A stretch of DNA of 58,048 nucleotides from Thermovirgaceae bacterium (GTDB taxonomy: Bacteria; Synergistota; Synergistia; Synergistales; Thermovirgaceae). The stretch covers positions 1 to 58,048 of the forward strand of contig JAXGNU010000010.1 in assembly GCA_040767805.1 (NCBI GenBank). The letters run 5' to 3'. The notes under the pieces were generated by a model, which did not search any database, was not told where the DNA came from, and saw only the letters and a program-made list of their open reading frames with translations. The translations under genes and the position numbers were made by a program. Below are positions 21,046-35,381 of this stretch, one piece after another; position 1 is the first letter of the stretch; every line of letters starts with the position of its first letter.

Positions 21046-21101
21046 TTGGTGGGATGGGGTATATTATCAGGTGAGGAGTGATCCGGGAAGGGGTTGAACC
21101 G

Positions 21102-22097
21102 ATGTACAAGATCAGGGTCCTGAACAGCGAAGATCTGAAAAAACTTTTGGACATCAAGGACGTCATCTCCGCCGTGGAGACCGCTTATGAGCAGTATTCC
21201 AGGGGCGAGGCTGGGCTTTTTCCCGTCATCGCCCATGAATTCGAGCGGGGGTCCCGGGAGCTGGATATCAAGTCGGGGTTCCTCTCAGGGACAGGCCTCG
21301 CGGGGCTCAAGGTGATCGGGTACGTGGCCGACAACCCGGAGAAGCGGAGGATACCGGCCATATCGGGGATCGTCATCGTGCTCAGCCTTGAGACGGGTAG
21401 ACCGGTGGGCATGCTGGACGGCATGATCATCACCAATATCAGGACTGGAGCCGCTGGTGCCATTGGCGCGAAGCATCTCGCCAGGGAGGGATCCAGCAAT
21501 ATCCTGGTGGTCGGCACCGGTGCCCAGGGGAGGGTCCAGGTACAAGGCCTGACCAAGGTCCTCCCAGGGATCGAGGTTGTACGAGTTGCGGGGAGGGATC
21601 CCGAGAAACTCTCCCGGTTCGTGGTCGAAATGTCAGCTCTCTACCCCCGGATACACTTCCAGGAGATCCCGATGGAAGGGCTCCAGGAGGCCGTCTCCCT
21701 GTCCGATGTCGTCGTGACCTGCACACCTTCCCACGAGCCTTTCATCAGGGCGGAATGGGTCCGTCCCGGGACCCACATCAACGCGATAGGCGCCGACTTT
21801 CCCGGTAAACAGGAATTGGACGAGCACCTGCTGCCCCTTGCCCGGCTCGTCGTCGACAGTAAGGCTCAATCCCTGGAGATAGGTGAGTTTCAGACGGCCT
21901 TCAAAAAGGGGCTCATCGGGGAGTCCGACGTGATCGAGATCGGGAGCATCTTGTCCTCCGAAGCCCGGGGGAGAGAAAACGATGAGGAGATCACCATCTT
22001 TGACACCTCCGGTATGGCCCTCCAGGATATCGTCACCGCCAATCTCGCGCTGGTCAGGGCCCTCGAACGCGGGATAGGTTCTCTGGTGAACCTGTAA
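21102..22097 (+). CDS. Ornithine cyclodeaminase / mu-crystallin family protein
   Basis: TNIRTGAAGA, VGTGAQG, GTHINAIGAD and FDTSGMALQD motifs. Confidence 0.9.
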   Translation: MYKIRVLNSEDLKKLLDIKDVISAVETAYEQYSRGEAGLFPVIAHEFERGSRELDIKSGFLSGTGLAGLKVIGYVADNPEKRRIPAISGIVIVLSLETGRPVGMLDGMIITNIRTGAAGAIGAKHLAREGSSNILVVGTGAQGRVQVQGLTKVLPGIEVVRVAGRDPEKLSRFVVEMSALYPRIHFQEIPMEGLQEAVSLSDVVVTCTPSHEPFIRAEWVRPGTHINAIGADFPGKQELDEHLLPLARLVVDSKAQSLEIGEFQTAFKKGLIGESDVIEIGSILSSEARGRENDEEITIFDTSGMALQDIVTANLALVRALERGIGSLVNL

Positions 22098-22115
22098 CGT
22101 CGGGGGTGGTTCTTC

Positions 22116-23099
22116 ATGCTGATAACCCCAGAGATGAGGGACGTGCTCAAGGCGGCGAGGTTTCTCGAGGGCAGGATAAGGAAAACCCCCGTCGAGAAGT
22201 CTTACCCCCTTTCGGACATGGCGGGCTCCGAGGTATTCCTCAAGTGGGAGAATCAACAGCTTTGCGGTTCCTTCAAAGTAAGGGGAGCCCTTAACAAGAT
22301 GTATTCACTCACCCCCCTGGAAAGGGGTAGGGGAGTCATTACCGCCTCATCGGGGAATCATGCCCAGGGCGTCGCCATGGCGGCAAGCCTTCTCGGCGTC
22401 AGGGCGGTCATCTGTGTCCCCGGTTCGTGTCCCGATACGAAGAGGGAAGCGATCCTCTCGAGGGGCTCAGGGTTGGTCGACCTCAGGGTCATCGGGCGCT
22501 TTTACGATGAAGCCGAGGCCGAGGCCAAGGCAGTTGCCGAAAGAGACGGGCTCGTCTATGTCTCGGCCTACGAAGATCATCATATCGTCAGCGGCCAGGG
22601 GACCCTGGGCCTTGAGTTCCTGATGGAGGTGCCCGACCTGGACCTGTTGATCGTTCCGATCAGCGGCGGAGGGCTGATCTCCGGGGTTGCTACGGCGGCC
22701 AGGGCCCTGAGGCCCGGCATAGAGGTCATAGGAGTCCACGCCTCGGCCAACCCCTCCTGGAAGGAGGCCTGGAAGAACTGTGCCGTGGTGCCGGTGGCGG
22801 AGAGCGATACCTATGCTGATGCCCTTTCGGGAGGGGCATCGGGGATACTTTTCCCCTTGGTCCGGAAGATAGTGTCGGGTCTTTCCGACGTTTCGGAGCA
22901 CGAGATAGCGAAGGCGATCGTTTTTTTACACTCAAACCATCACCAGGTCGTCGAGGGCGCCGGTTCCATCGGTGTGGCCGCGGTACTGGCCCGGCGGATC
23001 GAAACCGGCGGCCGGAAGACAGGTATAGTCATAAGCGGGGGCAATATAAGCGACGGGACAATCCTCAAGGCTTACGCGGAAGCGGGTGATGTCAAGTGA
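22116..23099 (+). CDS. Threonine/serine dehydratase family PLP enzyme (no ACT domain)
   Basis: LKWENQQLCGSFKVRGA, SSGNHAQG, GQGT, SGGGLISG and ISGGN motifs. Confidence 0.9.
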   Translation: MLITPEMRDVLKAARFLEGRIRKTPVEKSYPLSDMAGSEVFLKWENQQLCGSFKVRGALNKMYSLTPLERGRGVITASSGNHAQGVAMAASLLGVRAVICVPGSCPDTKREAILSRGSGLVDLRVIGRFYDEAEAEAKAVAERDGLVYVSAYEDHHIVSGQGTLGLEFLMEVPDLDLLIVPISGGGLISGVATAARALRPGIEVIGVHASANPSWKEAWKNCAVVPVAESDTYADALSGGASGILFPLVRKIVSGLSDVSEHEIAKAIVFLHSNHHQVVEGAGSIGVAAVLARRIETGGRKTGIVISGGNISDGTILKAYAEAGDVK

Positions 23100-23470: not shown

Positions 23471-23995
23471 CTATACTTCCCGGAAAGCCGTTGAAGGTGG
23501 CGACGGCAGGTCCCTGATCTCCTCCCTGGACTCGACCACTTTCAACTTGGCCGCCGCAGCGTCCTCCCAGACCTTTTCATGGACCTCTTCGTCGAAAAGG
23601 GCAATGATCCTGGCCGCGAAAAGCGCCGCATTCCGGGCAGCCCCTATCCCCATCGCCCCCACGGGGACGCCCGGCGGCATCTGGGCCACCGAGAGCAACG
23701 CGTCCATGCCTCCTAAGGTTCCCGCCGGTGCGGGGACCCCAATGACCGGGAGGGTGGTATGGGCGGCCAGCGCCCCGGGGAGAGCGGCCGAAAGACCTGC
23801 CACGGCGATGATGACCTTGAGGCCCCTCGCCCTGGCGTTCCTCGCGTAGTTGACCACGTCGTCGGGGGTGCGGTGGGCTGAAGCCACCGTCATCTCAAAA
23901 GGTATCCCCAGGGTCTCGAGGACTTCCTTGGTCTTGACCCCCAGCTCGAGGTCCGAAATTGAGCCCAGGACTATTCCGGCAACCGGTCCTTCCAA
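23471..23995 (-). CDS. purE: AIR carboxylase / N5-CAIR mutase PurE
   Basis: GSISD, SAHRTP, PVIGVP and QMPPGVPV motifs. Confidence 0.93.
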   Translation of the reverse strand: MEGPVAGIVLGSISDLELGVKTKEVLETLGIPFEMTVASAHRTPDDVVNYARNARARGLKVIIAVAGLSAALPGALAAHTTLPVIGVPAPAGTLGGMDALLSVAQMPPGVPVGAMGIGAARNAALFAARIIALFDEEVHEKVWEDAAAAKLKVVESREEIRDLPSPPSTAFREV

Positions 23996-25272
23996 GGCGT
24001 TCCACCACCTTTCAGCGCGATGTCGCTTCTGAACCTGGCCCCTTGAAAGCTGATCCTGTCAACAGCCCTATAGGCCTTTGAACGGGCATCGTCTATGCTT
24101 TTCCCCGTTCCGACCACCGTAAGGACCCTTCCCCCGGAGGTGACCATCCTCCCGGCTTGATCCCGTGCGGTTCCCGAGTGGAAGATGAACGTGCCCTCTT
24201 CACCTTGCAGTTCGGCGAGTCCCGACAAGGGGTGCCCTTTCTCGTAGGGACCGGGGTAGCCTCCCGAGGCGAGGACCACGCCAACGGCGGTCCTGGACGA
24301 CCCTTGGGGGGGGAGGCCGCCGAGGGAGCCCCCGGCGCAGGCTTCTGCCAGGAGCGCGAAGTCGCCGTCGTAAGCGGGCAGTACCACCTGCGTCTCGGGG
24401 TCGCCCATCCGGACGTTGTATTCGAGGACCCCCGCATCCCCTTCCCGATCGATCATAAGGCCGAAATACAGCACCCCCCTGAAGGGGATGGATTCTTTTT
24501 TCAGCCCCGACACGGTGGGTTCGATAACCCTGTCGATGACTCTCTCCATGAAAGGTCCGTCCGCCCAGGGGACGGGGGCGAAGGCACCCATGCCTCCCGT
24601 GTTGGGGCCCTTGTCACCGTCAAAGGCCCTCTTATGGTCCTGGCTCGTGGGCAGAACGTGAAAAGAGTCTCCGTCGGTCAACACCAACACGGTCAGTTCT
24701 TCCCCGGGAAGATGGTCTTCGATCACCACCTTTTCCCCCGCCCGGCCCAGGAGTCCCTTGACCAGGAGGCCGGCGCAAGTGTCCCTTGCCTCCAGGAATG
24801 ATCCCATTATGAAGGCGCCCTTGCCGGCCGCGAGCCCGTCGGCCTTCACCACGTAGGGCGGCCGCCTCTTGAGGAGGGCCTTTTCAGCCTGGTCCAGGTT
24901 TTCACAGATGTCGAAATCGGCAGTGGGTATCCCATGCCTGGACATGAAAAGTTTCGCGAAGGCCTTGCTGCCTTCGAGCATGGCTCCCCTTTTCCCGGGA
25001 CCGAGGACGGAAAAGCCCTCTTCCCTTAAAACATCGGCCAACCCAGACACTAGGGGAGCTTCCGGCCCGATGACGACCAGGTGGGGAGACAGGGAGCGCG
25101 CCAAGTCGACGGTCATCGCCGGGTCGGAAATATCCAGCCGGTGGACCGTGGCTGTCTTTTCGATGCCGGCGTTGCCGGGAGCGCAATGGACTGCACTTAC
25201 CGAGGGAGACCTCGATAGGGCCCAGCAGAGGGCGTGTTCCCTGCCGCCGCCACCCAGGACAAGGGTTCTCAT
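23971..25272 (-). CDS. purD: Phosphoribosylamine--glycine ligase
   Basis: GGGGREHAL, KADGLAAGKG, GPNTGGMG and EYNVRMGDPE motifs. Confidence 0.96.
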   Translation of the reverse strand: MRTLVLGGGGREHALCWALSRSPSVSAVHCAPGNAGIEKTATVHRLDISDPAMTVDLARSLSPHLVVIGPEAPLVSGLADVLREEGFSVLGPGKRGAMLEGSKAFAKLFMSRHGIPTADFDICENLDQAEKALLKRRPPYVVKADGLAAGKGAFIMGSFLEARDTCAGLLVKGLLGRAGEKVVIEDHLPGEELTVLVLTDGDSFHVLPTSQDHKRAFDGDKGPNTGGMGAFAPVPWADGPFMERVIDRVIEPTVSGLKKESIPFRGVLYFGLMIDREGDAGVLEYNVRMGDPETQVVLPAYDGDFALLAEACAGGSLGGLPPQGSSRTAVGVVLASGGYPGPYEKGHPLSGLAELQGEEGTFIFHSGTARDQAGRMVTSGGRVLTVVGTGKSIDDARSKAYRAVDRISFQGARFRSDIALKGGGTPWKDRLPE

Positions 25273-25287
25273 GGTTCGATCACTCCC

Positions 25288-26802
25288 TCAGTGGCGGAAG
25301 GTTCTCCACCCGCTGATGAACATGCTGACACCAAGTTTCGCGGCGATATTCTTGATGTCATCGTCCCTTATGGAGCCCCCCGGCTGTATCACCGCGGTGA
25401 TCCCGGCTTCGGCGGCCGCCTCGATGCTGTCGGGGAAGGGGAAGAACGCGTCGGAACCCAAGACCGCGCCGGCAGCCTTCCCCCCCGCTTGCAGACAAGC
25501 CCACTTAACAGCGTCTACCCGGCTCGTGAATCCTCGCCCCAGTCCAACGGTCATGCCCTCGCGGACGATCGATATGGAGTTGCTCTTGCCAAGGGCAGCC
25601 GCTTTCCAAGCCAGGAGCAAGTCGGCCCAGAGGTCGCCCCTGGGCTCACCCACCCATTCCCCCGAGTCGGGGTCCGGCAGCGGGGGGGTAATGTCATCCT
25701 GGACAAGGGTGCCGCTCCAGGTGCTCAAAAGTGAAGTGCCGCTGACATGTACGCCGTCCCATTCCAAGAGACGCAGGTTCGAAGCCAGCGCCCTGATCGC
25801 CTCTTCCGGTGAAGGACGTTGCGCCACCAGCACTTCGGAGAACTGCTCCGCCAAGCGCCGCGCGACGCGAGATCCACTTCCCCTGGTGAAGGCGATCACG
25901 CCGCCGAAGGCCGGAAACCGGGTCGCAGTCAAAGGCTTGGCAAGCGTCGAGGGCGTCTTCCGGATACGGCCCCGCAGGGCGTCGTGCTTGATGATCACGC
26001 AGGCGCAATCAGCGTGGGAGAAGGTCCATCGCCTTCATGGCGCAGTCGATATCGAGCAGGTTGTTGTACAAAGGGGTTTCCCGGATACCAGCCTCCAGGG
26101 TGTGTCCTCCAGGGGGTTCCCGTAGAGCGATGCCCGTTGGTGAGGGTTTTCGCCGTAGCGCAGATCGAACCTCTTGGAGAGAGGCAGGACGCGAAGGGGG
26201 GCGAAGGGTTCTTGCCTGCCGCAGGATCTCGAGAGGCCTTCGTGGATAACGGCGTCGTAGTGAGAGGTCTCCAGGAAGGCCCTGACGGCGAGTCTTTCCC
26301 TCGTGGGGAGTGTGACGTTGCCCTCGGACCTGATCTCTTCCACCACGGCGGCGTAGTCCCCAGGGTCCGTAACGGGAACCACGTGACGGAAATTTTTCGC
26401 GGCGGCCCGGATCAGGGTGACCCCCCCGATATCGATATGCTCCAGCAGTTCATCGAGGGCGGCGCCCTTTTTCAGGGTTTCCTCGAAGGGGTAAAGATTG
26501 CACACGACCATATCGATCATGGGAATCCCGTATTTTTCAACATCGGCCTTGTCACCCTCGAAATGTCTTCGCGCCAGGATCCCGCCGAAGACCGAGGGGT
26601 GAAGGGTTTTGACCCTGCCGCCAAGCAAATGAGGGTACCCTGTAAGATCTTCCACCTCCTTGACGGGCACACCCGCCTCCCTGATGTGCTTCGCGGTCCC
26701 GGAACTGGAGACGATCTCCCAACCCAGGTCGGCCAGGCCCTTCGCCAGGCCGGCCACGTTTCTCTTGTCGAAGACCGAGATAAGAGCGCGCTTCTGGCCC
26801 AT
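25288..26802 (-). pseudogene. purH: Bifunctional AICAR transformylase/IMP cyclohydrolase, frameshifted in this sequence
   Basis: N-part RALISVFDK, GRVKTLHP, DIGGVTLIRAAAKN, LRYGENPHQ; C-part SDAFFPFPD, IQPGGSIRD, RTFRH; YNNLLD and DCDPVS lie in other frames around 25900-26070. Confidence 0.85.
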
Positions 26803-26816
26803 TACAGGTTCTCCTT

Positions 26817-27388
26817 TCAGCGCCTACGACCCAACAGGTCGATCAGAGCCCTGGTATAGAGGACGTGCTCCACTCGGTGGATGCGGTCCTCCAGCGTTTC
26901 AAGTGTATCACCTGGGTGGATCCTTACAGGCTCCTGGGCGAGGATCTCTCCGTGGTCAACTTCCTCGTCGACGAGATGGACCGTGACACCGGTCACCTTC
27001 ACCCCTTTCTCATAGGCCGCTCTTATGGAGTCCCTGCCGGGGAAGGAGGGAAGCAGCGAGGGGTGGATGTTGACGATCCTACCCTTCCTGGGGGCGACGA
27101 ACCGCGGGGAAAGGATCCTCATGAACCCGGCGAGGACCACCCATTCGGCGGAGTACTCTTCAAGAAGTTCTTCCAGGTGTTTTTCGGCCCCCTCCCAGTC
27201 CCTTTCGGGGTTGGGGAGGACATGGGCGGCGATCTTCCTTTGGATCGCGAACAAGAGCCCTCCAGCGTCGGGTTTGTCGCTCGCAACGAAGGCCACTTCA
27301 GCTTTTAGGAGGCCCGATCGGCAGTTGTCCACGATGGAGGCCATGTTCGTCCCCTTGCCGGAAATGAGGATGGCCAGCCGGGGCTTCA

Positions 27389-27389
<1 letters not shown>
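26817..27389 (-). CDS. purN: Phosphoribosylglycinamide formyltransferase
   Basis: ISGKGTN, LAGFMRIL, NIHPSLLPSFPG and GVTVHLVD motifs. Confidence 0.96.
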
Positions 27390-28361
<972 letters not shown>

Positions 28362-28378
<17 letters not shown>

Positions 28379-29738
28379 TATCCTCTCCTCCGTCAAGGTA
28401 GTCCCCGCTGAAGCAGGCCGTGCAGATATCCGACGGCGGGAGACCGATCGATGAGACAAGGTCTTCGATGCCCAGGTAGTGCAGTGAGTCAGCCCCTACC
28501 GTCGCGCGAAGGGTATCGATATCCAGTTTGGCGGCGGCCAATTCTTCGCAGGAGAGCATGTCTATCCCGTAGTAACAGGGGAAGCGGACGGGCGGAGAGG
28601 CGATCCTGATATGGACCCTGGCGGCCCCGTCCTGCCTGATCATGGAAATGGCCCGTTCCACGGTGGTGCCCCTCACGATCGAGTCATCGACGACGGCCAG
28701 TTCCTTGCCGGCGACGAGCTTCTTGATCGGATTGAGCTTGATCCTCACTCCCAGGGCCCTGACTCTCTGGGTGGGCTGGATAAAAGTCCTCCCGACGAAC
28801 CTGTTCCTCACGATGGCCGCTTCGTAACGCTGACCGGCACAACCAGCATAACCGATCGCCGCAATAGTCCCGCTGTCGGGCATGCCCGTGACAATGTCCG
28901 CGGTGGGGCTGGGGGCGCTGGCGGACAATTTGCAACCCAGGGTTTTTCTCACTTCGTAGACGGACTTCCCGTCGACCACGCTGTCAGGCCTGGCAAAATA
29001 GACGTACTCGAAGGCGCAGGAGTAAAGCCGGGAAGCCTCGACGGGGATCCTGATGCTCTTGATCCCGGCCTCATCAATTACGATGATCTCGCCGGGTTTC
29101 ACATCCCTGAGCAGCGAGGCTCCCACTATGTCAAGGGCGCAGCTCTCGGAGGCCACGTAAAAGGTGTCCTCCCGCCTACCCAGGACAAGGGGTCGAAAAC
29201 CCCAGGGGTCGCGGGCTGCGACAAGCCGGTTCCCCAGCAACACCGCGAGGCTGTAGGCTCCCTTGAGGCGAATGAGGGCATCCACCAGCGCGTCCAGGGG
29301 CGGCTTGTGCGACTGGTGCGCCATCAGGTGGATGATGGTCTCCGTGTCGGTGGCGGACTGGAATATGGCGCCCCTCGACTCGAGCATGTGCCTTATTCCC
29401 ATGGCGTTGGTGATGTTGCCGTTATGGGCGACGGCTACAGAGCCCATGGAATAGTTGGCCGTGATCGGGTGGACGTTGGCCAGGCCTGAAGGGCCGGCGG
29501 TCGAGTACCTGACGTGCCCGATAGCTGAGTTCGCCCTCAGGCCAGCCAGGTATTTCTGATCGAGGGCTATGTGAACCAGCCCCATCCCCTTTACGGAGTT
29601 GACTTCGCTCCCTTCGTTGGAGTTCCAGGCAATGCCCGCTGATTCCTGCCCCCGGTGCTGCAGGGCGTAAAGCCCCAGGTAGACGTCCTCCAACACGGAA
29701 TGGCCGTTCTTGCAAAAGGCGCCGAAAACCCCAGCCAT
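28362..29738 (-). CDS. purF: Amidophosphoribosyltransferase with Ala in place of the N-terminal catalytic Cys
   Basis: LQHRGQESAG, GHVRYST, HNGN, CAFEYVYFARPDS, VDDSIVRGTT and CTACF motifs; N-terminus reads MAGVFG. Confidence 0.92.
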
Positions 29739-29742
29739 TGCT

Positions 29743-31896
29743 CTAGGCCCCCTCGACCTTTTCTTGGGATGTCCTTCCGGGGTATATTTCCTGTTTCCCG
29801 AGGGCGAGAACACCGCCGGCTATCTTGCCGATCCTCCTGGCGGGGAAACCCTCCCAGCAAGAAAGGAAAAGGTCGTTCGATCCTTCCGGGACGAGGTAAA
29901 CCGCCCTCGCGCCCCATTCTCCAAAGAGGCGATCGGGGGAAAGGTCGAGGTTCCCGGTGTCGAGACTGATCCCGATCCCCCCGACCCGGCATATCTTCGC
30001 AAGGGCGACCAGCAATCCGCCCCCGGCCACCGCTCGTCCCGCCGCGGCAGCCCCTTCGCGGGCGGTACGCTGGGCCCTTTCCATGAAGGCCCTTTCCTTC
30101 ACGGGGTTGTAGGGTCCCGCGGGGTAGTTGCCGGCCGGGTCGACAACCCTCGAGTAAGCGCTTCCCCCTAAAAACCCTTGTTCTTCTCCCACCAGGAAGA
30201 TCGAACCGGCTTCCAGTCCGGCGGAATCCCCCAGGGGGGTCCTTCCCTCTTCGAGGAGCCCCACGACGGCTATAAGAGGACTGGCAAGGATCTTCCCGTC
30301 AGGGCTTTCATTGTAAAGGCTGACATTGCCCGAAACAACGGGACAGGCGAGGTCGCCGCCCACCGCAGCCAGGCCCTGGACAGAACGCTCCAGCACCCAG
30401 AAGTTCTCTGGGTCTTCCGGCGACGGGAAGTTCAGGCAGTTCGTCATGCCCAGGTGGGCGGCGCCACTCACCCAAAGGGGTCTGAGGCACTTGAGGAAGG
30501 TCTCGGCTGTCCCCAGTAAGGGCTCAAGTTGACATTTCCAGGGGTCCGCATCCATGGTCACCCCCACGAGGTTCCCCTTCGCCGGGACCCGGAAGATGGA
30601 TACGCTTTTACCGGGAGGGGTGATGGTGTTGGACTGGGTCCCGGAGTCGAACCGGCCGAAAATACCGGATTTGTCGGCCAGGTTCGGATCTTCCAGGAGG
30701 GCCGCGAGGGAGCGGGAGACCTCTTCCGAATCGAGAAAACCCGCGCTTTTGACCTCAACGGATGCCCTGGAGGAGGGCTTTTTCGAAGGCCAGTGGATCG
30801 GGGGAGAGCCGCCCCCGACCATCTCCGCCGGGAGGTTGACCACGGTCCTCCCTCCCCGGGTCATGACGAAGTCGCCGTCACCGGTGACTTCACCAATCAC
30901 CGCCCAATCCAGCCGCCACTTGGCGGCAATGGAACCGATCTCATCCAGGTCCTCCTCCTTTACGATGAGGAGCATCCTTTCCTGGGTTTCCGAAAGGGCT
31001 ATCTCCCAGGGCTCCATCTTTTCCTTGAGGGGGACCAGGTCGACGTTTACCAGGATCCCGGTGCCGCTTTTCGAGGCTATTTCGCTCGAGGAGGAAACGA
31101 TCCCCGCGGCCCCCATGTCCTGCATGGCGACTATCAGGCCCTTCGAGTGGATCTCGAGACAGCCTTCGATCAGTCTTTTTGCCAGGAGGGGATTCCCTTT
31201 TGGGATCCGGGGAAGGACCGGGGCCGCTGCGCTGGTCAACTCGGAAGAAGCGAAGGCGGCGCCCGCGACCCCTTCTTTCCCGGTCCTTGAACCTATCATA
31301 ACGGCCCTGTGCCCCGGTTTCGCCGTCTTGGAACTGACGATGCCACCCAGCGGCACCAGCCCGAGGCACATCGCGTTGACCAGGGGGTTGCCGTCGAAGC
31401 ACTCATCATAAACGGTCTTGCCACCTATGGTGGGGACGCCCAGGGTGTTCCCGTACCCGGCGATGCCCTCCACGATCCCATCGGCGGTTTCCGCGGCCCG
31501 GGGTGAATCCTTCCTCCCCAGGCAGAGCCCGTCCAAAAGGGCCACCGGCCTGGCCCCCATGGCCAAGACGTCCCTGACGATACCGCCCACGCCGGTGGCC
31601 GCGCCGTCGTAGGGGGCCACCGCGGAGGGGTGGTTATGGCTCTCCAGTTTGAAGGCAATCCCCCAACCTCCGCCGATATCGACGACGCCGGCGTTCTCCC
31701 CGGGTCCAAGAACAACGAAGTCCCCCTCGGTGGGCAAGCCGGCCAGGAGCCTTCTCGTGGACTTGTAACTGCAGTGCTCGGACCACATTACGCCAAGGAT
31801 CCTGAGTTCAGCCTGGTTCGGTTGCCGTTCCAAGGCTTCGATGATCGCGCTGTATTCGGAATCGCTGAGTCCTACCGACCGGTGGTCAACCTCCAT
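29743..31896 (-). CDS. purL: Phosphoribosylformylglycinamidine synthase, small PurL subunit
   Basis: WSEHCSYKS, ESHNHPS, GAATGVGGI, QDMGAAG, SETQERM and SGNVSLYN motifs; 717 aa. Confidence 0.94.
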   Translation of the reverse strand: MEVDHRSVGLSDSEYSAIIEALERQPNQAELRILGVMWSEHCSYKSTRRLLAGLPTEGDFVVLGPGENAGVVDIGGGWGIAFKLESHNHPSAVAPYDGAATGVGGIVRDVLAMGARPVALLDGLCLGRKDSPRAAETADGIVEGIAGYGNTLGVPTIGGKTVYDECFDGNPLVNAMCLGLVPLGGIVSSKTAKPGHRAVMIGSRTGKEGVAGAAFASSELTSAAAPVLPRIPKGNPLLAKRLIEGCLEIHSKGLIVAMQDMGAAGIVSSSSEIASKSGTGILVNVDLVPLKEKMEPWEIALSETQERMLLIVKEEDLDEIGSIAAKWRLDWAVIGEVTGDGDFVMTRGGRTVVNLPAEMVGGGSPPIHWPSKKPSSRASVEVKSAGFLDSEEVSRSLAALLEDPNLADKSGIFGRFDSGTQSNTITPPGKSVSIFRVPAKGNLVGVTMDADPWKCQLEPLLGTAETFLKCLRPLWVSGAAHLGMTNCLNFPSPEDPENFWVLERSVQGLAAVGGDLACPVVSGNVSLYNESPDGKILASPLIAVVGLLEEGRTPLGDSAGLEAGSIFLVGEEQGFLGGSAYSRVVDPAGNYPAGPYNPVKERAFMERAQRTAREGAAAAGRAVAGGGLLVALAKICRVGGIGISLDTGNLDLSPDRLFGEWGARAVYLVPEGSNDLFLSCWEGFPARRIGKIAGGVLALGKQEIYPGRTSQEKVEGA

Positions 31897-32129
31897 ATCC
31901 CCAACCTCCCTTGATCCCCGTTGTCAAGCACTTCGACAGGGGGTCACCGCCATTAAAGACTGCCATCCCAGTATAGGCCCATCCCGCGGGTACATCCTGC
32001 CGCGGCCGCCAACAACGCCGGGCGGAAGCGCCCCTCCTCAAGGCTCCCTTTCGTCGACAAGCTCGTTGCCTTTGGGCCGCTGACCCTAACGGATCCTCTC
32101 GATGATAAGAAATGACCGGCAAATTACTT

Positions 32130-32160
32130 ACATTATTCGTACTTTAAACTCTAATGTCAA
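32130..32160 (-). promoter_or_regulatory. pur operon promoter with overlapping PurBox-like site
   Basis: Minus strand TTGACA (32160-32155), 17-bp spacer, AATAAT; AAGTACGAATAAT (32144-32132) resembles the Bacillus-type PurBox with its CGAA core. Confidence 0.55.
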
Positions 32161-32335
32161 TATTTCTGAGGATCATGTGAAAGGATGAATGGAAAGTAGG
32201 TCCTATTAGTGTAAATAATAACATTCCATGTTAGAATACCAGGCGTGCCGCGGGAGGTCTCTGATCATCCCCAGTTCGAGGTTTTTCACCGGCCCCCTCG
32301 GCGGGGAATAATAATCGTGAGGAGGAATCGCTTTA

Positions 32336-33158
32336 ATGGAAGGTTTCAAAACTCCCCTGTTATTGAACTAAGCTGAATCGGCATGCCTTACGGCAAAGGC
32401 CAAGGTGGCCTGGAGCATCCCCCAGATGCTCCTCTTGGGGTTCATGGCCGGGTCCTACATTGCTTTCGGGGGATGGCTGATGACCGTCGGCCCTGACCCA
32501 TGACCTTGCCGCCCATGTCGGGCTGGGGTTCTCGAAGTTCCTCGGCGGCGCTATATTCAGCGTCGGACTGATGCTCGTGGTCATCGCCGGGGCTGAACTT
32601 TTCACGGGGAACTGCATGATGCCCCCTTGGAGTCATGGCCGGCTGCATTCCCATGAGCGGAGTCGTCAGGAACTGGTTCTGGGTCTACGTGGCCAACTTG
32701 CTCGGGAGTATTTTCGTGGCATTCTTGATCTTTTATTCCGGTCTCTGGAAGGGGCCCATCGGCATCAACGCTTTCAAGATCGCGGCCGGCAAGATGAGCC
32801 TCCCGTTGGCGAGGCCGTTTTCCGTGGCATCCTTTGTAACTGGCTCGTGGTGCTAGCTGTGTGGATGAGCATGGCGGCCACCGACATCATCGGGAAGATC
32901 TGACCATTTCTTCCCCATCGTAGCCTTCGTCGCCTCCGGTTACGAACACTCCATCACCAACATGTACTTCATGGCCCTGGGGATTCTCCTCAAGAGGCGA
33001 CCCTTCGACCAATAGCTTGGCGCCGGCCTCTCCCAGGAAGTGCTATCCCAGGTCTCGATGGGGGAGTTACCTCCATAACCTGATCCCCGTAACCATAGGC
33101 AACTTGATCGGGGGATCCTGTTTGTGGCTATATTCTACTTCCTGGTCTTCAGGACTAA
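32336..33158 (+). pseudogene. Formate/nitrite transporter (FNT family), multiply frameshifted
   Basis: FNT motifs GAELFTGN, GILCNWLVVLAVW, VASGYEHSITNM and NLIPVTIGNLIGG spread over different frames; GAGGAGG RBS before ATG 32336. Confidence 0.85.
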
Positions 33159-33231
33159 CGCGAGGATATCGTGTAAAGGCATCAAGAGCCGATCCTGTTC
33201 GAACACCCTTGATACCTGCGGCGGCAGCGGC

Positions 33232-33858
33232 GTGATCGACGTTGCCGCCGTCATTCCCACCGGCAGCAGGGTAAAAGGGCTGGAGGAGCCAAGGTATTCC
33301 TCTCACCGTCGGAGGGCGCTGCCTCATCCTGGAGGTCCTCAAAGGGCCCTGTCACTTTTCGACGGGATGTTGTTCCTGTCGAAAGGAAGATAGCGGACCG
33401 CTGGGCGGGATCATCCAGTCCCTGCCGCAAAGAGATCGTGTTAAGACCGTATCTGACCGGGTGGAGGGCCTGGGCCCCCTGGAGGGGATGGCCGTGAGCC
33501 TTGAAACTGAAGGAATGGGCCTTTGTGATGGGGTGCGATATGCCCTGGTCGATCCTGCCGTGGTGAGGTTGATGTGGTCGAAGGGGGAGGATGAGGACGC
33601 CGTCATCACGCGAGAATAGGGGGCTTCCTTGAGCCTCTTCATGCCTTTACCACAAGAGGTGCGTCGACGCTGTGGAAGGGGCCATTTTCGGGAAAAATCC
33701 GGGCACAAGATCACCTCTTTTTTATCCGGATATTTCCCCCTTGTCATCGAGGAGCGGGAGTTCGCCCTCATCCCTGGTTATCATGAATATTTTCCTGAAC
33801 GTTAATACCCCGGAAGATATTCGGTCCTGGCTTGAGGAAAGGCACCGGTGCCCCCTGA
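33232..33858 (+). pseudogene. mobA: Molybdenum cofactor guanylyltransferase (MobA-like), frameshifted
   Basis: VAAVI..G start, DRVEGLGPLEGM and FLNVNTPED motifs in different frames; boundaries approximate. Confidence 0.6.
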
Positions 33859-33907
33859 ATCCTCCGGCACCGGCCCTTTGTGTTCCTCCAAATCCCAGCC
33901 TGCATGT

Positions 33908-33964
33908 GTTCCTCATATAAAGAATCTAAGTGAAGTCCTTCGCTGCCTCACGAAGAAATCTAAG
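33908..33964. repeat. IS left-end motif pair
   Basis: GTTCCTCATATAAAGAATCTAAG and GCTGCCTCACGAAGAAATCTAAG approximate the reverse complement of the right-end motif. Confidence 0.65.
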
Positions 33965-35255
33965 CGACCCTACCGGGATCGGTCTCCTTTCCAGGAGACC
34001 CTTGTTCTTACTCGCAAAGGCCCTGTTGAGCCTGGCCTTGAGCCGGTCCACCTCTTTCTTCAAGTCCGCCAGGTTCAGGGCCTCGAACTGCTCCCTCAGG
34101 GAGGATTTCCTCCTCCGTGACATCTTCCCGAAGCCATCAGGCGCTGGTAGGGCGTCTGGGGTGTGTCGTAGATCTTCCTGACCTTCGCCCCGACCCTAAC
34201 CTTCGAAACCAGCTTCGCCGAGGGAAGGAAGAAGTTCACGTAGAGCCTGTAAGCGTCATAGAGCTCATTCAGGGCCTTTCTGCTCACCTTCCGTATCGTA
34301 CCTGGCATACCCTGCCACCCTTCTTGCCACTGACCAGTTCTTCTGCTCCACGTAGCAGTTGTCGTTCTTGTTCCCTGCCCTTGACCTTGTGAAGGTTATC
34401 CTTTCGTCTTCGCAGTACTTTTGCAGGTGGTGGTTTATGAAGGTCGAATCGTTGTCCGAATCTATGCCCTGCGGAGGAAGGAACGAGCGCTCGATGGATT
34501 TCAGGGCTTCCAGGGTCAGAGCCTGGCCCTGTTCTTGACGGCCCTCAGTTCAGTCCGCCTGAAGCCACGTCGGTGACGTCAGGGTGAAGGCAAATTCTCC
34601 TTTGGCGTTCCCGCCCTCATGGGAAACCAGGTCTATCTCGGCGAAACCCGGTCTCTTTTCGTCCCAGTCGGCAAAGGTCCGTATCGGTATCTTGTGCTTC
34701 AGCAGTGTCCCGGGCTTGGTGGAGGAACGCTCCTTCAGGCGGAGCTTTCTCTTCCGGTCCGCCAGCATGCGGTCTATGGTTGCCGCAGACACGGACATGA
34801 CCTTGTCCCTGGTCTCCGGAGAGGTGAGATCCCCCCGAGCTCAAGCTTTGCAGGACCAGCCATGGAATGGCAGCGGCAAGCCTCTTGCCGCAGATGTAGT
34901 CCATCATCTTCCAAAGCGGAAATGACACAGCGGCCGCTTCACTGTCATAGGTCCTAGGCCTCTTCCTTTTCCCACAGGCCTTATGGCCCTTTCTGTCAAC
35001 TTGCAGGATCAGGGAGGCACCCTGCCGCCCCCAAGGTATAGGCGCCGGCCGAAGAGGCAGAGAAGATGGGGCGTAGTCCCGGTTGTAGCCCGTCGTGGCG
35101 GTAACACAGTCCAATATCCAGGCCCTTCTCCTTCTTCGACGCCCTGCGAGTACTCGTCAGAAGCCTGGACGATCACTTCCTCCTCGCATCGAAAACCTCA
35201 CCCGTCCTTCCTTCCTCCAGGTCATGCCCTTGAAGGAAGATGCTATACCCTTCGG

Positions 35256-35311
35256 CTAGATTCTTAGGTGAGGCAACGTATCGCTTTCGTCTAGATTTTA
35301 GGTGAGGCAAC
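35256..35311. repeat. IS right-end tandem motif pair
   Basis: CTAGATTCTTAGGTGAGGCAAC (35256-35277) and CTAGATTTTAGGTGAGGCAAC (35291-35311). Confidence 0.85.
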
Positions 35312-35381
35312 TCGCACCGATGACATTTCCCCTCCTGTTGGTTAGAATTGGTTTCGTTTCACAAGCCAGAGGTGTCTCAAA

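Follow-up and report, generated by a model that had tools for sequence, protein, structure and literature searches.

Candidate ammonia-fed de novo purine synthesis in a Thermovirgaceae clade lacking three glutaminase functions

The window analyzed here, a stretch of 58,048 nucleotides from a Thermovirgaceae bacterium (phylum Synergistota; GenBank assembly GCA_040767805.1, contig JAXGNU010000010.1), carries a purine biosynthesis (pur) operon in which purL, the gene for the small formylglycinamidine ribonucleotide (FGAM) synthase, follows the promoter without purQ or purS, and in which the next gene, purF, has lost the nucleophilic cysteine of its glutaminase domain. Genome G000 (1.65 Mb, 80.6% complete) contains the window as contig C10, and both lesions, together with a third in the guanosine monophosphate (GMP) synthetase GuaA, are shared by two congeners, G157 (87% complete) and G178 (96% complete). 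We propose, with a probability of roughly 0.7, that the clade formed by these three genomes would synthesize purines de novo from free ammonia. On one standard view, PurF, PurL, and GuaA take their nitrogen from glutamine in vivo, and free ammonia serves only glutamine synthetase and NadE. A search of the open-access literature, with subscription journals outside its reach, found no report of a natural loss of purQ and purS or of a glutamine-independent purine pathway. Table 1 of PMC3376133, in its available text, gives no glutaminase-less PurL (660 genomes), GuaA (730 genomes; 100% fused), or PyrG (800 genomes), figures in which rounding may hide exceptions.

On the minus strand, the operon reads promoter-purL-purF-purM-purN-purH-purD-purE. 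A sigma70-type promoter-like site (TTGACA-17-AATAAT, 11 of 12 matches; 32132..32160, minus strand) is followed by a 235-nucleotide spacer (31897..32131, minus strand), by purL (29743..31896, minus strand; 717 amino acids), and by purF (28362..29738, minus strand; 458 amino acids). The earlier note had placed purL directly behind the promoter with neither purQ nor purS between them, and this arrangement is confirmed, with contigs from two sequencing runs in agreement. Relatives hold purC-purS-purQ, about 1.7 kb, where the window has the spacer, and their ancestral operon order is purC-purS-purQ-purL-purF. The promoter site is conserved in G157 and in the congener G120, in which purC starts right behind the site, and the conservation of the promoter region extends up to this purC start; promoter-like sites numbered 4 in the 600 nucleotides scanned, against 0.6 expected. 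Judging from these gene orders, purC, purS, and the greater part of purQ were probably lost in one deletion. The spacer was also considered as a remnant of the purQ 3' end. The best local alignment falls there in all four comparisons, but its scores (69 to 77) are below the shuffle maxima (75 to 81), and a decayed purQ end is only suggested by the sequence.

No copies of purQ or purS were found in the rest of these genomes either. Profiles for PurQ (PF13507) and PurS (PF02700) found no match in G000, tblastn searches with PurQ and PurS of G120 found none in G000 at an E value of 0.1, and profile searches found neither protein in G157 or G178. Intact copies of purQ and purS elsewhere, which the earlier note had named as the finding that would speak against it, were thus looked for in all three genomes and not found. 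Small PurL occurs in all 19 genomes of the family, while PurQ plus PurS occur in 15 of 17 relatives and in an 18th, G251, the exceptions being G157 and G178. In a PurL tree, G000, G157, and G178 form one clade, and the sister group consists of the congeners G103 and G120, which have none of the three lesions, that is, the loss of purC-purS-purQ, the alanine in PurF, and the change in GuaA.

Independent sequence data bear on whether the deletion is real. The stretch is present in 20 of the 24 runs listed, from 11 studies, with labels of sludge, activated sludge, digester, or plain metagenome. Contigs of four runs were compared with the window, and in two of the four a single contig covers the whole of 25200-32600 without purC, purS, or purQ. 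Among the differences listed for the run contigs, none falls at the alanine codon of purF; in run X15, one contig covers 28354-30138 with zero differences. Relative to G157, the indels are concentrated in purH (25743-26070), in a gene pair upstream of the promoter, and in the gene for glutamine synthetase, with none in 26070-31928. The reading of the window's purH as a pseudogene was rejected: its indels lie within 330 nucleotides, contigs of all four runs correct them, and purH is a single frame in G157. Because the run contigs agree, purH is intact and the deletion and the alanine substitution are real. A similar patch of indels cuts the type III glutamine synthetase of G000 (G000:C3:64606-65042, locus L089) at about 620 amino acids, and this gene is whole in G157.

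Two further absences proved less informative. Neither purB nor pyrG was found in G000, but both are present in G157 and G178 and the neighboring DNA ends at contig edges, so that their loss was rejected as evidence; the absence of purB from G000 is probably an assembly gap. The earlier claim that purC, purB, and purK are missing therefore stands for the operon but not for the genome, given a divergent PurC homolog on contig C15 and the probable gap at purB; purK was not searched for genome-wide. In the operon, purD runs straight into purE, as it does in the operons of relatives. Contigs of six RNA-labeled runs also hold the stretch. Transcription was not accepted from these contigs, as their coverage neither shows expression nor excludes DNA.

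The second lesion, in PurF, lies at the catalytic N-terminal residue of the glutaminase domain. The gene starts ATG GCT GGG (Met-Ala-Gly), and codon 2 (29733..29735, minus strand) encodes alanine where the N-terminal nucleophile Cys1 is expected. The earlier observation of a Cys-less PurF is confirmed, and the same alanine is found in G157 and G178. Met-Ala-Gly is thus common to the three clade genomes, compared with Met-Cys-Gly in all 15 other family members in which the start is seen (G218 is not among them). PurF scores 469.6 bits against a TIGR01134 cut-off of 350 and keeps the HRGQ, HVRY, HNGN, and TDTE motifs, the phosphoribosyl pyrophosphate (PRPP) loop VDDSIVRGTT (residue 350), and four cluster cysteines. 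The available text of PMC3261824 states that the C1A and C1S mutants of Escherichia coli PurF lose the use of glutamine and keep the use of ammonia.

The third lesion lies outside the window, in guaA (G000:C14:18005-19564; loci L071 and L298). Where G103, G120, and E. coli have QFHPE, GuaA of the clade has AFLPE or QFLPE, which replaces His181 with leucine; we take His181 to be a member of the Cys-His-Glu triad. Moreover, CYGMQ has become CYGMP in all three genomes, and SHxD has become SRxD in G000 and G157, in which His143 is arginine; G178 keeps His143. The synthetase domain of the G000 protein scores 469.5 bits against a TIGR00884 cut-off of 338.75, while the glutaminase domain, at 157 bits, falls under the TIGR00888 cut-off of 172. 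The synthetase domain is whole in G157; in G178, the assembly does not join it to the N-terminal part. In vitro, GMP synthetases accept external ammonia, according to the available text of bioRxiv 10.1101/2022.02.27.481963. The inference that glutaminase function was lost at both glutamine-dependent steps to inosine monophosphate (IMP) is therefore supported at the genome level, and GuaA adds a third step.

Whether other amidotransferases were affected as well had also been raised, and the answer is divided: GuaA is lesioned in all three genomes, but the catalytic motifs of PyrG and GlmS are intact. This holds for the PyrG triad in G157 and G178 and for Cys1 of GlmS in all three genomes; the amidase motifs of GatA are likewise kept in G000. 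The loss of glutaminase function in the clade is therefore purine specific. No class I or C26 glutaminase besides GuaA and PyrG was found in the trio. A 223-amino-acid glutaminase of G035, tried as a split GuaA subunit, reads like HisH (a label given by eye).

PurL itself passes its profiles (691.7 bits against a TIGR01736 cut-off of 525.75; also PRK01213). In general, small PurL in isolation can use ammonia. Residues H41, K83, E85, H87, D109, D260, and N524 are kept and align with those of Thermotoga maritima; presumably they serve as the adenosine triphosphate (ATP)- and Mg-binding residues and the catalytic histidine. Two regions differ. First, codon 232 (31201..31203, minus strand) encodes proline, in an alignment in which this position matches T. 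maritima Q208 and human Q485 of the catalytic loop. Proline is found in all three clade genomes, and 66 of 67 purS- and purQ-bearing Synergistota PurLs have glutamine. The stretch neighboring position 232 is also changed in the clade. In Salmonella PurL, the stretch beside the catalytic-loop glutamine is an allosteric switch to the glutaminase, according to the available text of PMC7124931, and the available text of PMC13013826 describes mutants of the channel gate that human Q485 forms as having a dual role, in gating and in signaling to the glutaminase. Second, residues 416-419 (30640..30651, minus strand) read F-D-S-G instead of Y-D-x-M, and positions 416 and 419 (Tyr416 and Met419 of this loop) are changed in all three Synergistota lineages without purS and purQ. 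The Y-D-x-M loop appears to correspond to the Asp657 loop of Salmonella PurL. The Asp657 loop lies at the glutaminase interface, as stated in the available text of PMC3815217.

Those lineages came to light in a search of 251 Synergistota genomes, themselves a subset of a larger group. A strong small PurL, by our own cut of an E value of 1e-100 or better, is encoded by 167 genomes, of which 163 pass the curated cut-off. Eight of the 167 lack PurS, and none of the eight has a PurQ match. One of them, G192, was dropped because its purL ends at a contig edge in a genome that is 79% complete. The remaining seven are the window trio, a trio from genus g25 (G108, G134, and G217; 94 to 97% complete), and G130 of genus g13; in the latter four, purC leads directly into purL. 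A tree of 74 PurLs, built by a quick method and leaving out G003, loci L001-L009, and all large PurLs, requires three changes to account for the loss, and branches with support of at least 95 force all three. On this tree, three independent events removed purS and purQ within Synergistota. Among the 190 columns conserved across 95% or more of the 67 purS- and purQ-bearing PurLs, the seven deviate at 10 to 17, compared with a median of 1 in the bearers. The number of changed columns common to the window clade and g25 is 5, where 0.5 would be expected, a comparison whose p value is optimistic since columns are unequally free to change.

The accompanying lesions vary among lineages. In the g25 trio, an internal deletion of about 110 residues removes both Cys and His from GuaA, while G130 keeps the GuaA triad and has SHGD changed to SRGY. 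All four of these genomes keep PurF Cys1 and the PyrG cysteine. The suggested correlation between loss of PurF Cys1 and loss of purS and purQ consequently holds in part: the two coincide in the window clade, but this is one of three lineages lacking purS and purQ (three of seven genomes). Glutamine synthetase was not matched in five of the seven (G108, G134, G217, G130, and G178), genomes that are incomplete, and it was matched in all seven purS- and purQ-bearing congeners tested as well as in G000, G157, G154, and G189. Since the genomes are incomplete and the rows related, its loss along with purS and purQ is a lead. The five genomes may import glutamine or may run more steps on ammonia, though the PyrG glutaminase cysteine is kept.

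Other routes to a damaged glutaminase were seen as well. G154 of genus g54, the only purS- and purQ-bearing outlier in the PurL column test, has serine for the catalytic cysteine in PurQ and PyrG, glycine in GuaA, and PurF only as a Ser1 form; G189 of the same genus has alanine in PurQ and glycine in GuaA. In genus g23, GuaA is without a glutaminase domain (2 of 2 seen), PurF is of a Cys-less type beginning MGGFF (2 of 2), and PyrG has serine for cysteine (1 seen), while the large PurL keeps Cys and His. As separate observations, many genomes of family f2 have a tandem purF(Cys)-purC-purF(Ser1, HNG changed to HDG) (L066, L111, L147, L149, L150, L156, L242, and L243), that is, a second, glutaminase-dead PurF beside a normal one, and G154 (L241) has the Ser copy alone. 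In genus g27, G073, G061, and G102 have lost purF from the operon by deletion and have only an MGGFF-type Cys-less PurF elsewhere, while G082 has both (L226-L228 and L301-L304). Contig G168:C78 holds two purQ-purL-purF copies with identical scores and opposite orientations, either a duplication or an assembly artifact.

The altered genes are under selection. Ratios of nonsynonymous to synonymous substitution rates (dN/dS), some of them computed with a few upstream codons included, are for the pair G000/G157 0.18 for purL, 0.06 for purF, 0.20 for purN, 0.20 for purD, 0.15 for the N-terminal half of purH, 0.22 for purM, and 0.15 for purE, with 0.07 for lepA. For the purS- and purQ-bearing pair G103/G120, they are 0.21 for purL, 0.04 to 0.11 for purF, 0.21 for purN, 0.22 for purD, 0.06 for purH, 0.25 for purM, and 0.06 for purE. 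In G000/G157, purL, purF, purN, purD, the N-terminal half of purH, and a second purC (below) lie far below neutral, with p values of 1e-5 to 1e-27. The pur operon, with dN/dS from 0.06 to 0.24, is not decaying and is under purifying selection. Within GuaA, the glutaminase domain (0.30) is more relaxed than the synthetase domain (0.18).

What the pathway is kept for can be narrowed. Retention only for aminoimidazole ribonucleotide (AIR), as a precursor of thiamine or cobamide, was rejected, as no ThiC/Bza match (PF01964) was found in any of the five genomes of the genus. This absence, along with the failure to find his genes in G000, argues that purE and purH are kept for IMP; the lack of his genes likewise speaks against retention only to process AICAR (aminoimidazole carboxamide ribonucleotide) arising from histidine synthesis. 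One step, the SAICAR (phosphoribosylaminoimidazole-succinocarboxamide) synthetase reaction, would then need an enzyme other than canonical PurC. A divergent homolog of about 290 amino acids (G000:C15:12105-13151, L297; also L235-L240) is found in 12 of 19 family genomes, including all three of the clade, and most of these also have canonical purC. It scores 88.8 bits against 20 for PF01259 and 81 against a cut-off of 190 for TIGR00081, most motifs are kept, and the gene is conserved, with dN/dS of 0.09 to 0.14. From its sequence, this second PurC is a possible stand-in for the deleted purC.

We therefore propose a mechanism in which free ammonia would be the direct nitrogen donor at three steps to IMP and GMP that normally use glutamine. 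PurF, with Ala for Cys1, would join PRPP and ammonia at an intact phosphoribosyltransferase site, its dead glutaminase domain serving as a scaffold. Small PurL alone would convert formylglycinamide ribonucleotide (FGAR), ATP, and ammonia to FGAM; its loops for docking of and signaling with PurQ and PurS would have drifted, and loss of the gate glutamine may open the site to solvent ammonia. GuaA would aminate the adenylate of xanthosine monophosphate with ammonia, and the divergent PurC homolog would replace the deleted one, so that flux could reach IMP. Any benefit would include economy, as bypassing glutamine synthetase would, by textbook stoichiometry, save 2 ATP per IMP and 3 per GMP. ATP-dependent amidotransferases generally accept both glutamine and ammonia in vitro, according to the available text of PMC3376133.

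The ammonia would have two sources, the digester and the cell's own fermentation of amino acids through arginine deiminase, carbamate kinase, glutamate dehydrogenase, and a stand-alone glutaminase. Genes for arginine deiminase, ornithine carbamoyltransferase, carbamate kinase, and a glutamate dehydrogenase-like protein are present in G000, and a GlsA-family glutaminase, which could pass glutamine nitrogen into the free ammonia pool, is found in 17 of 19 family genomes, including all three of the clade. This gene set suggests an ammonia-producing way of life, one shared with species that keep purS and purQ. The idea of an adaptation to high ammonia thus gains signs of an ammonia-replete cell, but these are family-wide, purS and purQ keepers included, and do not separate adaptation from neutral loss. 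The transporter Amt, found in 0 of 19 family genomes and in 1 of 17 elsewhere, does not set the clade apart by its absence. At a separate locus, G000:C1:82440-87054 (L292), the genes for arcA, ornithine carbamoyltransferase, a carbon-nitrogen hydrolase, and single-domain nadE follow one another. The hydrolase and NadE could together form a two-subunit NAD synthetase; alternatively, the hydrolase could be an omega-amidase next to a NadE that uses ammonia.

Several observations weigh against ammonia-fed synthesis. All three clade genomes are incomplete, and purL of G178 starts at a contig edge, which leaves the operon junction seen only in the other clade members. An obligate coupling of the PurF and purS-purQ losses was rejected, as four of the seven purS- and purQ-less genomes keep Cys1. 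Type III glutamine synthetase is kept in G000 and G157, as are the PyrG, GlmS, and GatA motifs, and glutamine has therefore not been abandoned. PurS has been reported as required for purine synthesis in Bacillus subtilis. Michaelis constants (Km) of GMP synthetase for NH4Cl are 4 to 174 mM in the available text of bioRxiv 10.1101/2022.02.27.481963, and high ammonia would be needed for that reason. Purifying selection is not uniformly as strong as in the sister pair: in purE, purH, GlmS, and the synthetase domain of GuaA it is somewhat weaker than in G103/G120, and since GlmS (0.15) and the GuaA synthetase domain (0.18) compare with 0.04 and 0.045 there, some of the relaxation is general. Canonical purC is gone from all three genomes, and its possible replacement falls under the purC cut-off and has no C-terminal DKDxFR motif. 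The main doubt concerns PurL. In human PFAS, according to the available text of PMC13013826, Q485 makes a bond to the formylglycinamide intermediate and constitutes the ammonia channel's lower gate, and Gln232 has become proline only in the window clade, not in the other two lineages without purS and purQ. Pro232 can be read either as an opened gate or as damage.

If it is damage, the de novo pathway might be crippled or repurposed, with PurL weak or dead, the divergent PurC doing another job, and the cell relying mainly on purine salvage, its pathway genes being in slow decay or retained for some side function. Beyond Pro232 and the loss of purC in all three genomes, this reading draws on the distribution of the second PurC, which is also found in nine family genomes that have canonical purC (in G103 as pieces), on an HPRT (hypoxanthine phosphoribosyltransferase)-like motif on C18, and on the genomes' small size, neither his nor carA/carB genes having been found in G000. 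We consider it unlikely. The operon genes are whole (purH after read correction), purL, purM, purN, and purD have dN/dS values equal to those of G103/G120, and PurL keeps its ATP, Mg, and His residues. GuaA is needed even for hypoxanthine salvage, yet it too is without its histidine, and the stretch is held in contigs of the six RNA-labeled runs, from which DNA is not excluded.

A second alternative keeps glutamine as the donor: a borrowed or unrecognized glutaminase, such as GlsA, the domain of PyrG or GlmS, or some novel protein, would dock on PurL, PurF, and GuaA and channel ammonia to them. Candidates exist, since the GlsA family is represented in all three genomes and the PyrG and GlmS glutaminase motifs are intact, and the available text of De Ingeniis et al. 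(PMC3376133) raises such an alternative for NadE and describes a few two-subunit cases. Nevertheless, one partner would need to fit three unrelated folds, the trio has no class I or C26 glutaminase beyond GuaA and PyrG, the interface loop of PurL has eroded to different residues in each lineage, and in PurF and GuaA the ammonia entrances are still covered by dead domains, which together make the idea improbable. Least probable by a wide margin is an assembly artifact, in which purQ and purS would be on DNA that the assembly missed and the substitutions in PurF and GuaA would be erroneous or unconnected, since G000, though 80.6% complete, without pyrG and purB, and carrying proven indel errors, agrees with single contigs of two runs that join promoter to purL without the genes, shares the absence and substitutions with genomes so that all three (81, 87, and 96% complete) concur, and has a PurL with the changes expected after loss of its partners.

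Ammonia-fed synthesis in the clade invites a broader and more tentative proposal, to which we give somewhat less than even odds. Small PurL would be a self-sufficient, ammonia-dependent FGAM synthase in vivo, and amino acid-fermenting Synergistota would repeatedly have rebuilt nucleotide synthesis around free ammonia, alongside loss of glutamine synthetase. The window clade would be complete in this respect for purines, its loop change would lower the Km for ammonia by opening the gate, and sister species would represent a natural series of intermediates.

The remaining operon genes in the window, all on the minus strand, are purM (27389..28381), purN (26817..27389), purH (25288..26802; two open reading frames through the patch at ~25743-26070, an assembly sequence error), purD (23971..25272), and purE (23471..23995), the last directly behind purD and with no purK in the operon. 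In profile searches, purL, purF, purM, purN, purD, and purE are all above NCBIfam cut-offs. On the plus strand, 21078-23099 holds an ornithine cyclodeaminase/alanine dehydrogenase-family gene and a serine/threonine dehydratase-like gene, both from ammonia-releasing families, which converge on the end of the pur operon. Upstream of the promoter, 32350-33850 holds formate/nitrite-transporter-like and MobA-like genes (labels by eye), frameshifted here and whole in G157; the runs correct these frameshifts in the part compared (to 32600). Beyond them, about 1.4 kb (33900-35315) are absent from G157 and hold short reading frames that resemble pieces of an integrase-type transposase (label by eye).

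A clade without all three glutaminases beside congeners about 85% identical in PurF makes the physiological use of ammonia testable with matched enzyme pairs. The clade also offers a PurL that would work in nature without PurS, along with naturally occurring mutants of the channel gate and of the interface loop. Databases mislabel such proteins "glutamine-hydrolyzing," which affects metabolic models of digester and gut anaerobes. For biotechnology, the clade suggests glutamine-independent purine enzymes for production strains.

Compared with known systems, each enzyme is close to a well-described relative and differs at its glutaminase. PurF matches the B. subtilis type (1GPH and 1AO0; E value of 6e-126 over nearly full length) but has alanine for Cys1 and is thus the counterpart in nature of the C1A mutant of E. 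coli. It is a vertically inherited ortholog, 85% identical to Cys-bearing congeners, with the remaining glutamine pocket intact, and in this it differs from the divergent Cys-less PurF of the MGGFF type. GuaA aligns over its full length with the two-domain GMP synthase of E. coli (1GPM), and its synthetase domain passes, but the glutaminase His181 is lost. PurL resembles the subunit of the PurL-PurQ-PurS2 complexes of T. maritima (3D54 and 2HS0), Thermus thermophilus (3VIU), and B. subtilis, as evidenced by best PDB matches and by the kept active-site His, Lys, Glu, Asp, and Asn residues; here, however, the genome has no PurQ or PurS, the loop glutamine is proline, and Y-D-x-M is changed. The functional precedent is single-domain NadE, an ATP-dependent amidotransferase without a glutaminase partner that draws on free ammonia in vivo, according to the available text of De Ingeniis et al. 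(2012; PMC3376133). An ancestral use of ammonia has been proposed for NadE, which serves a low-flux cofactor step, whereas the losses described here are secondary, repeated, and joint and would affect three high-flux steps of nucleotide synthesis.

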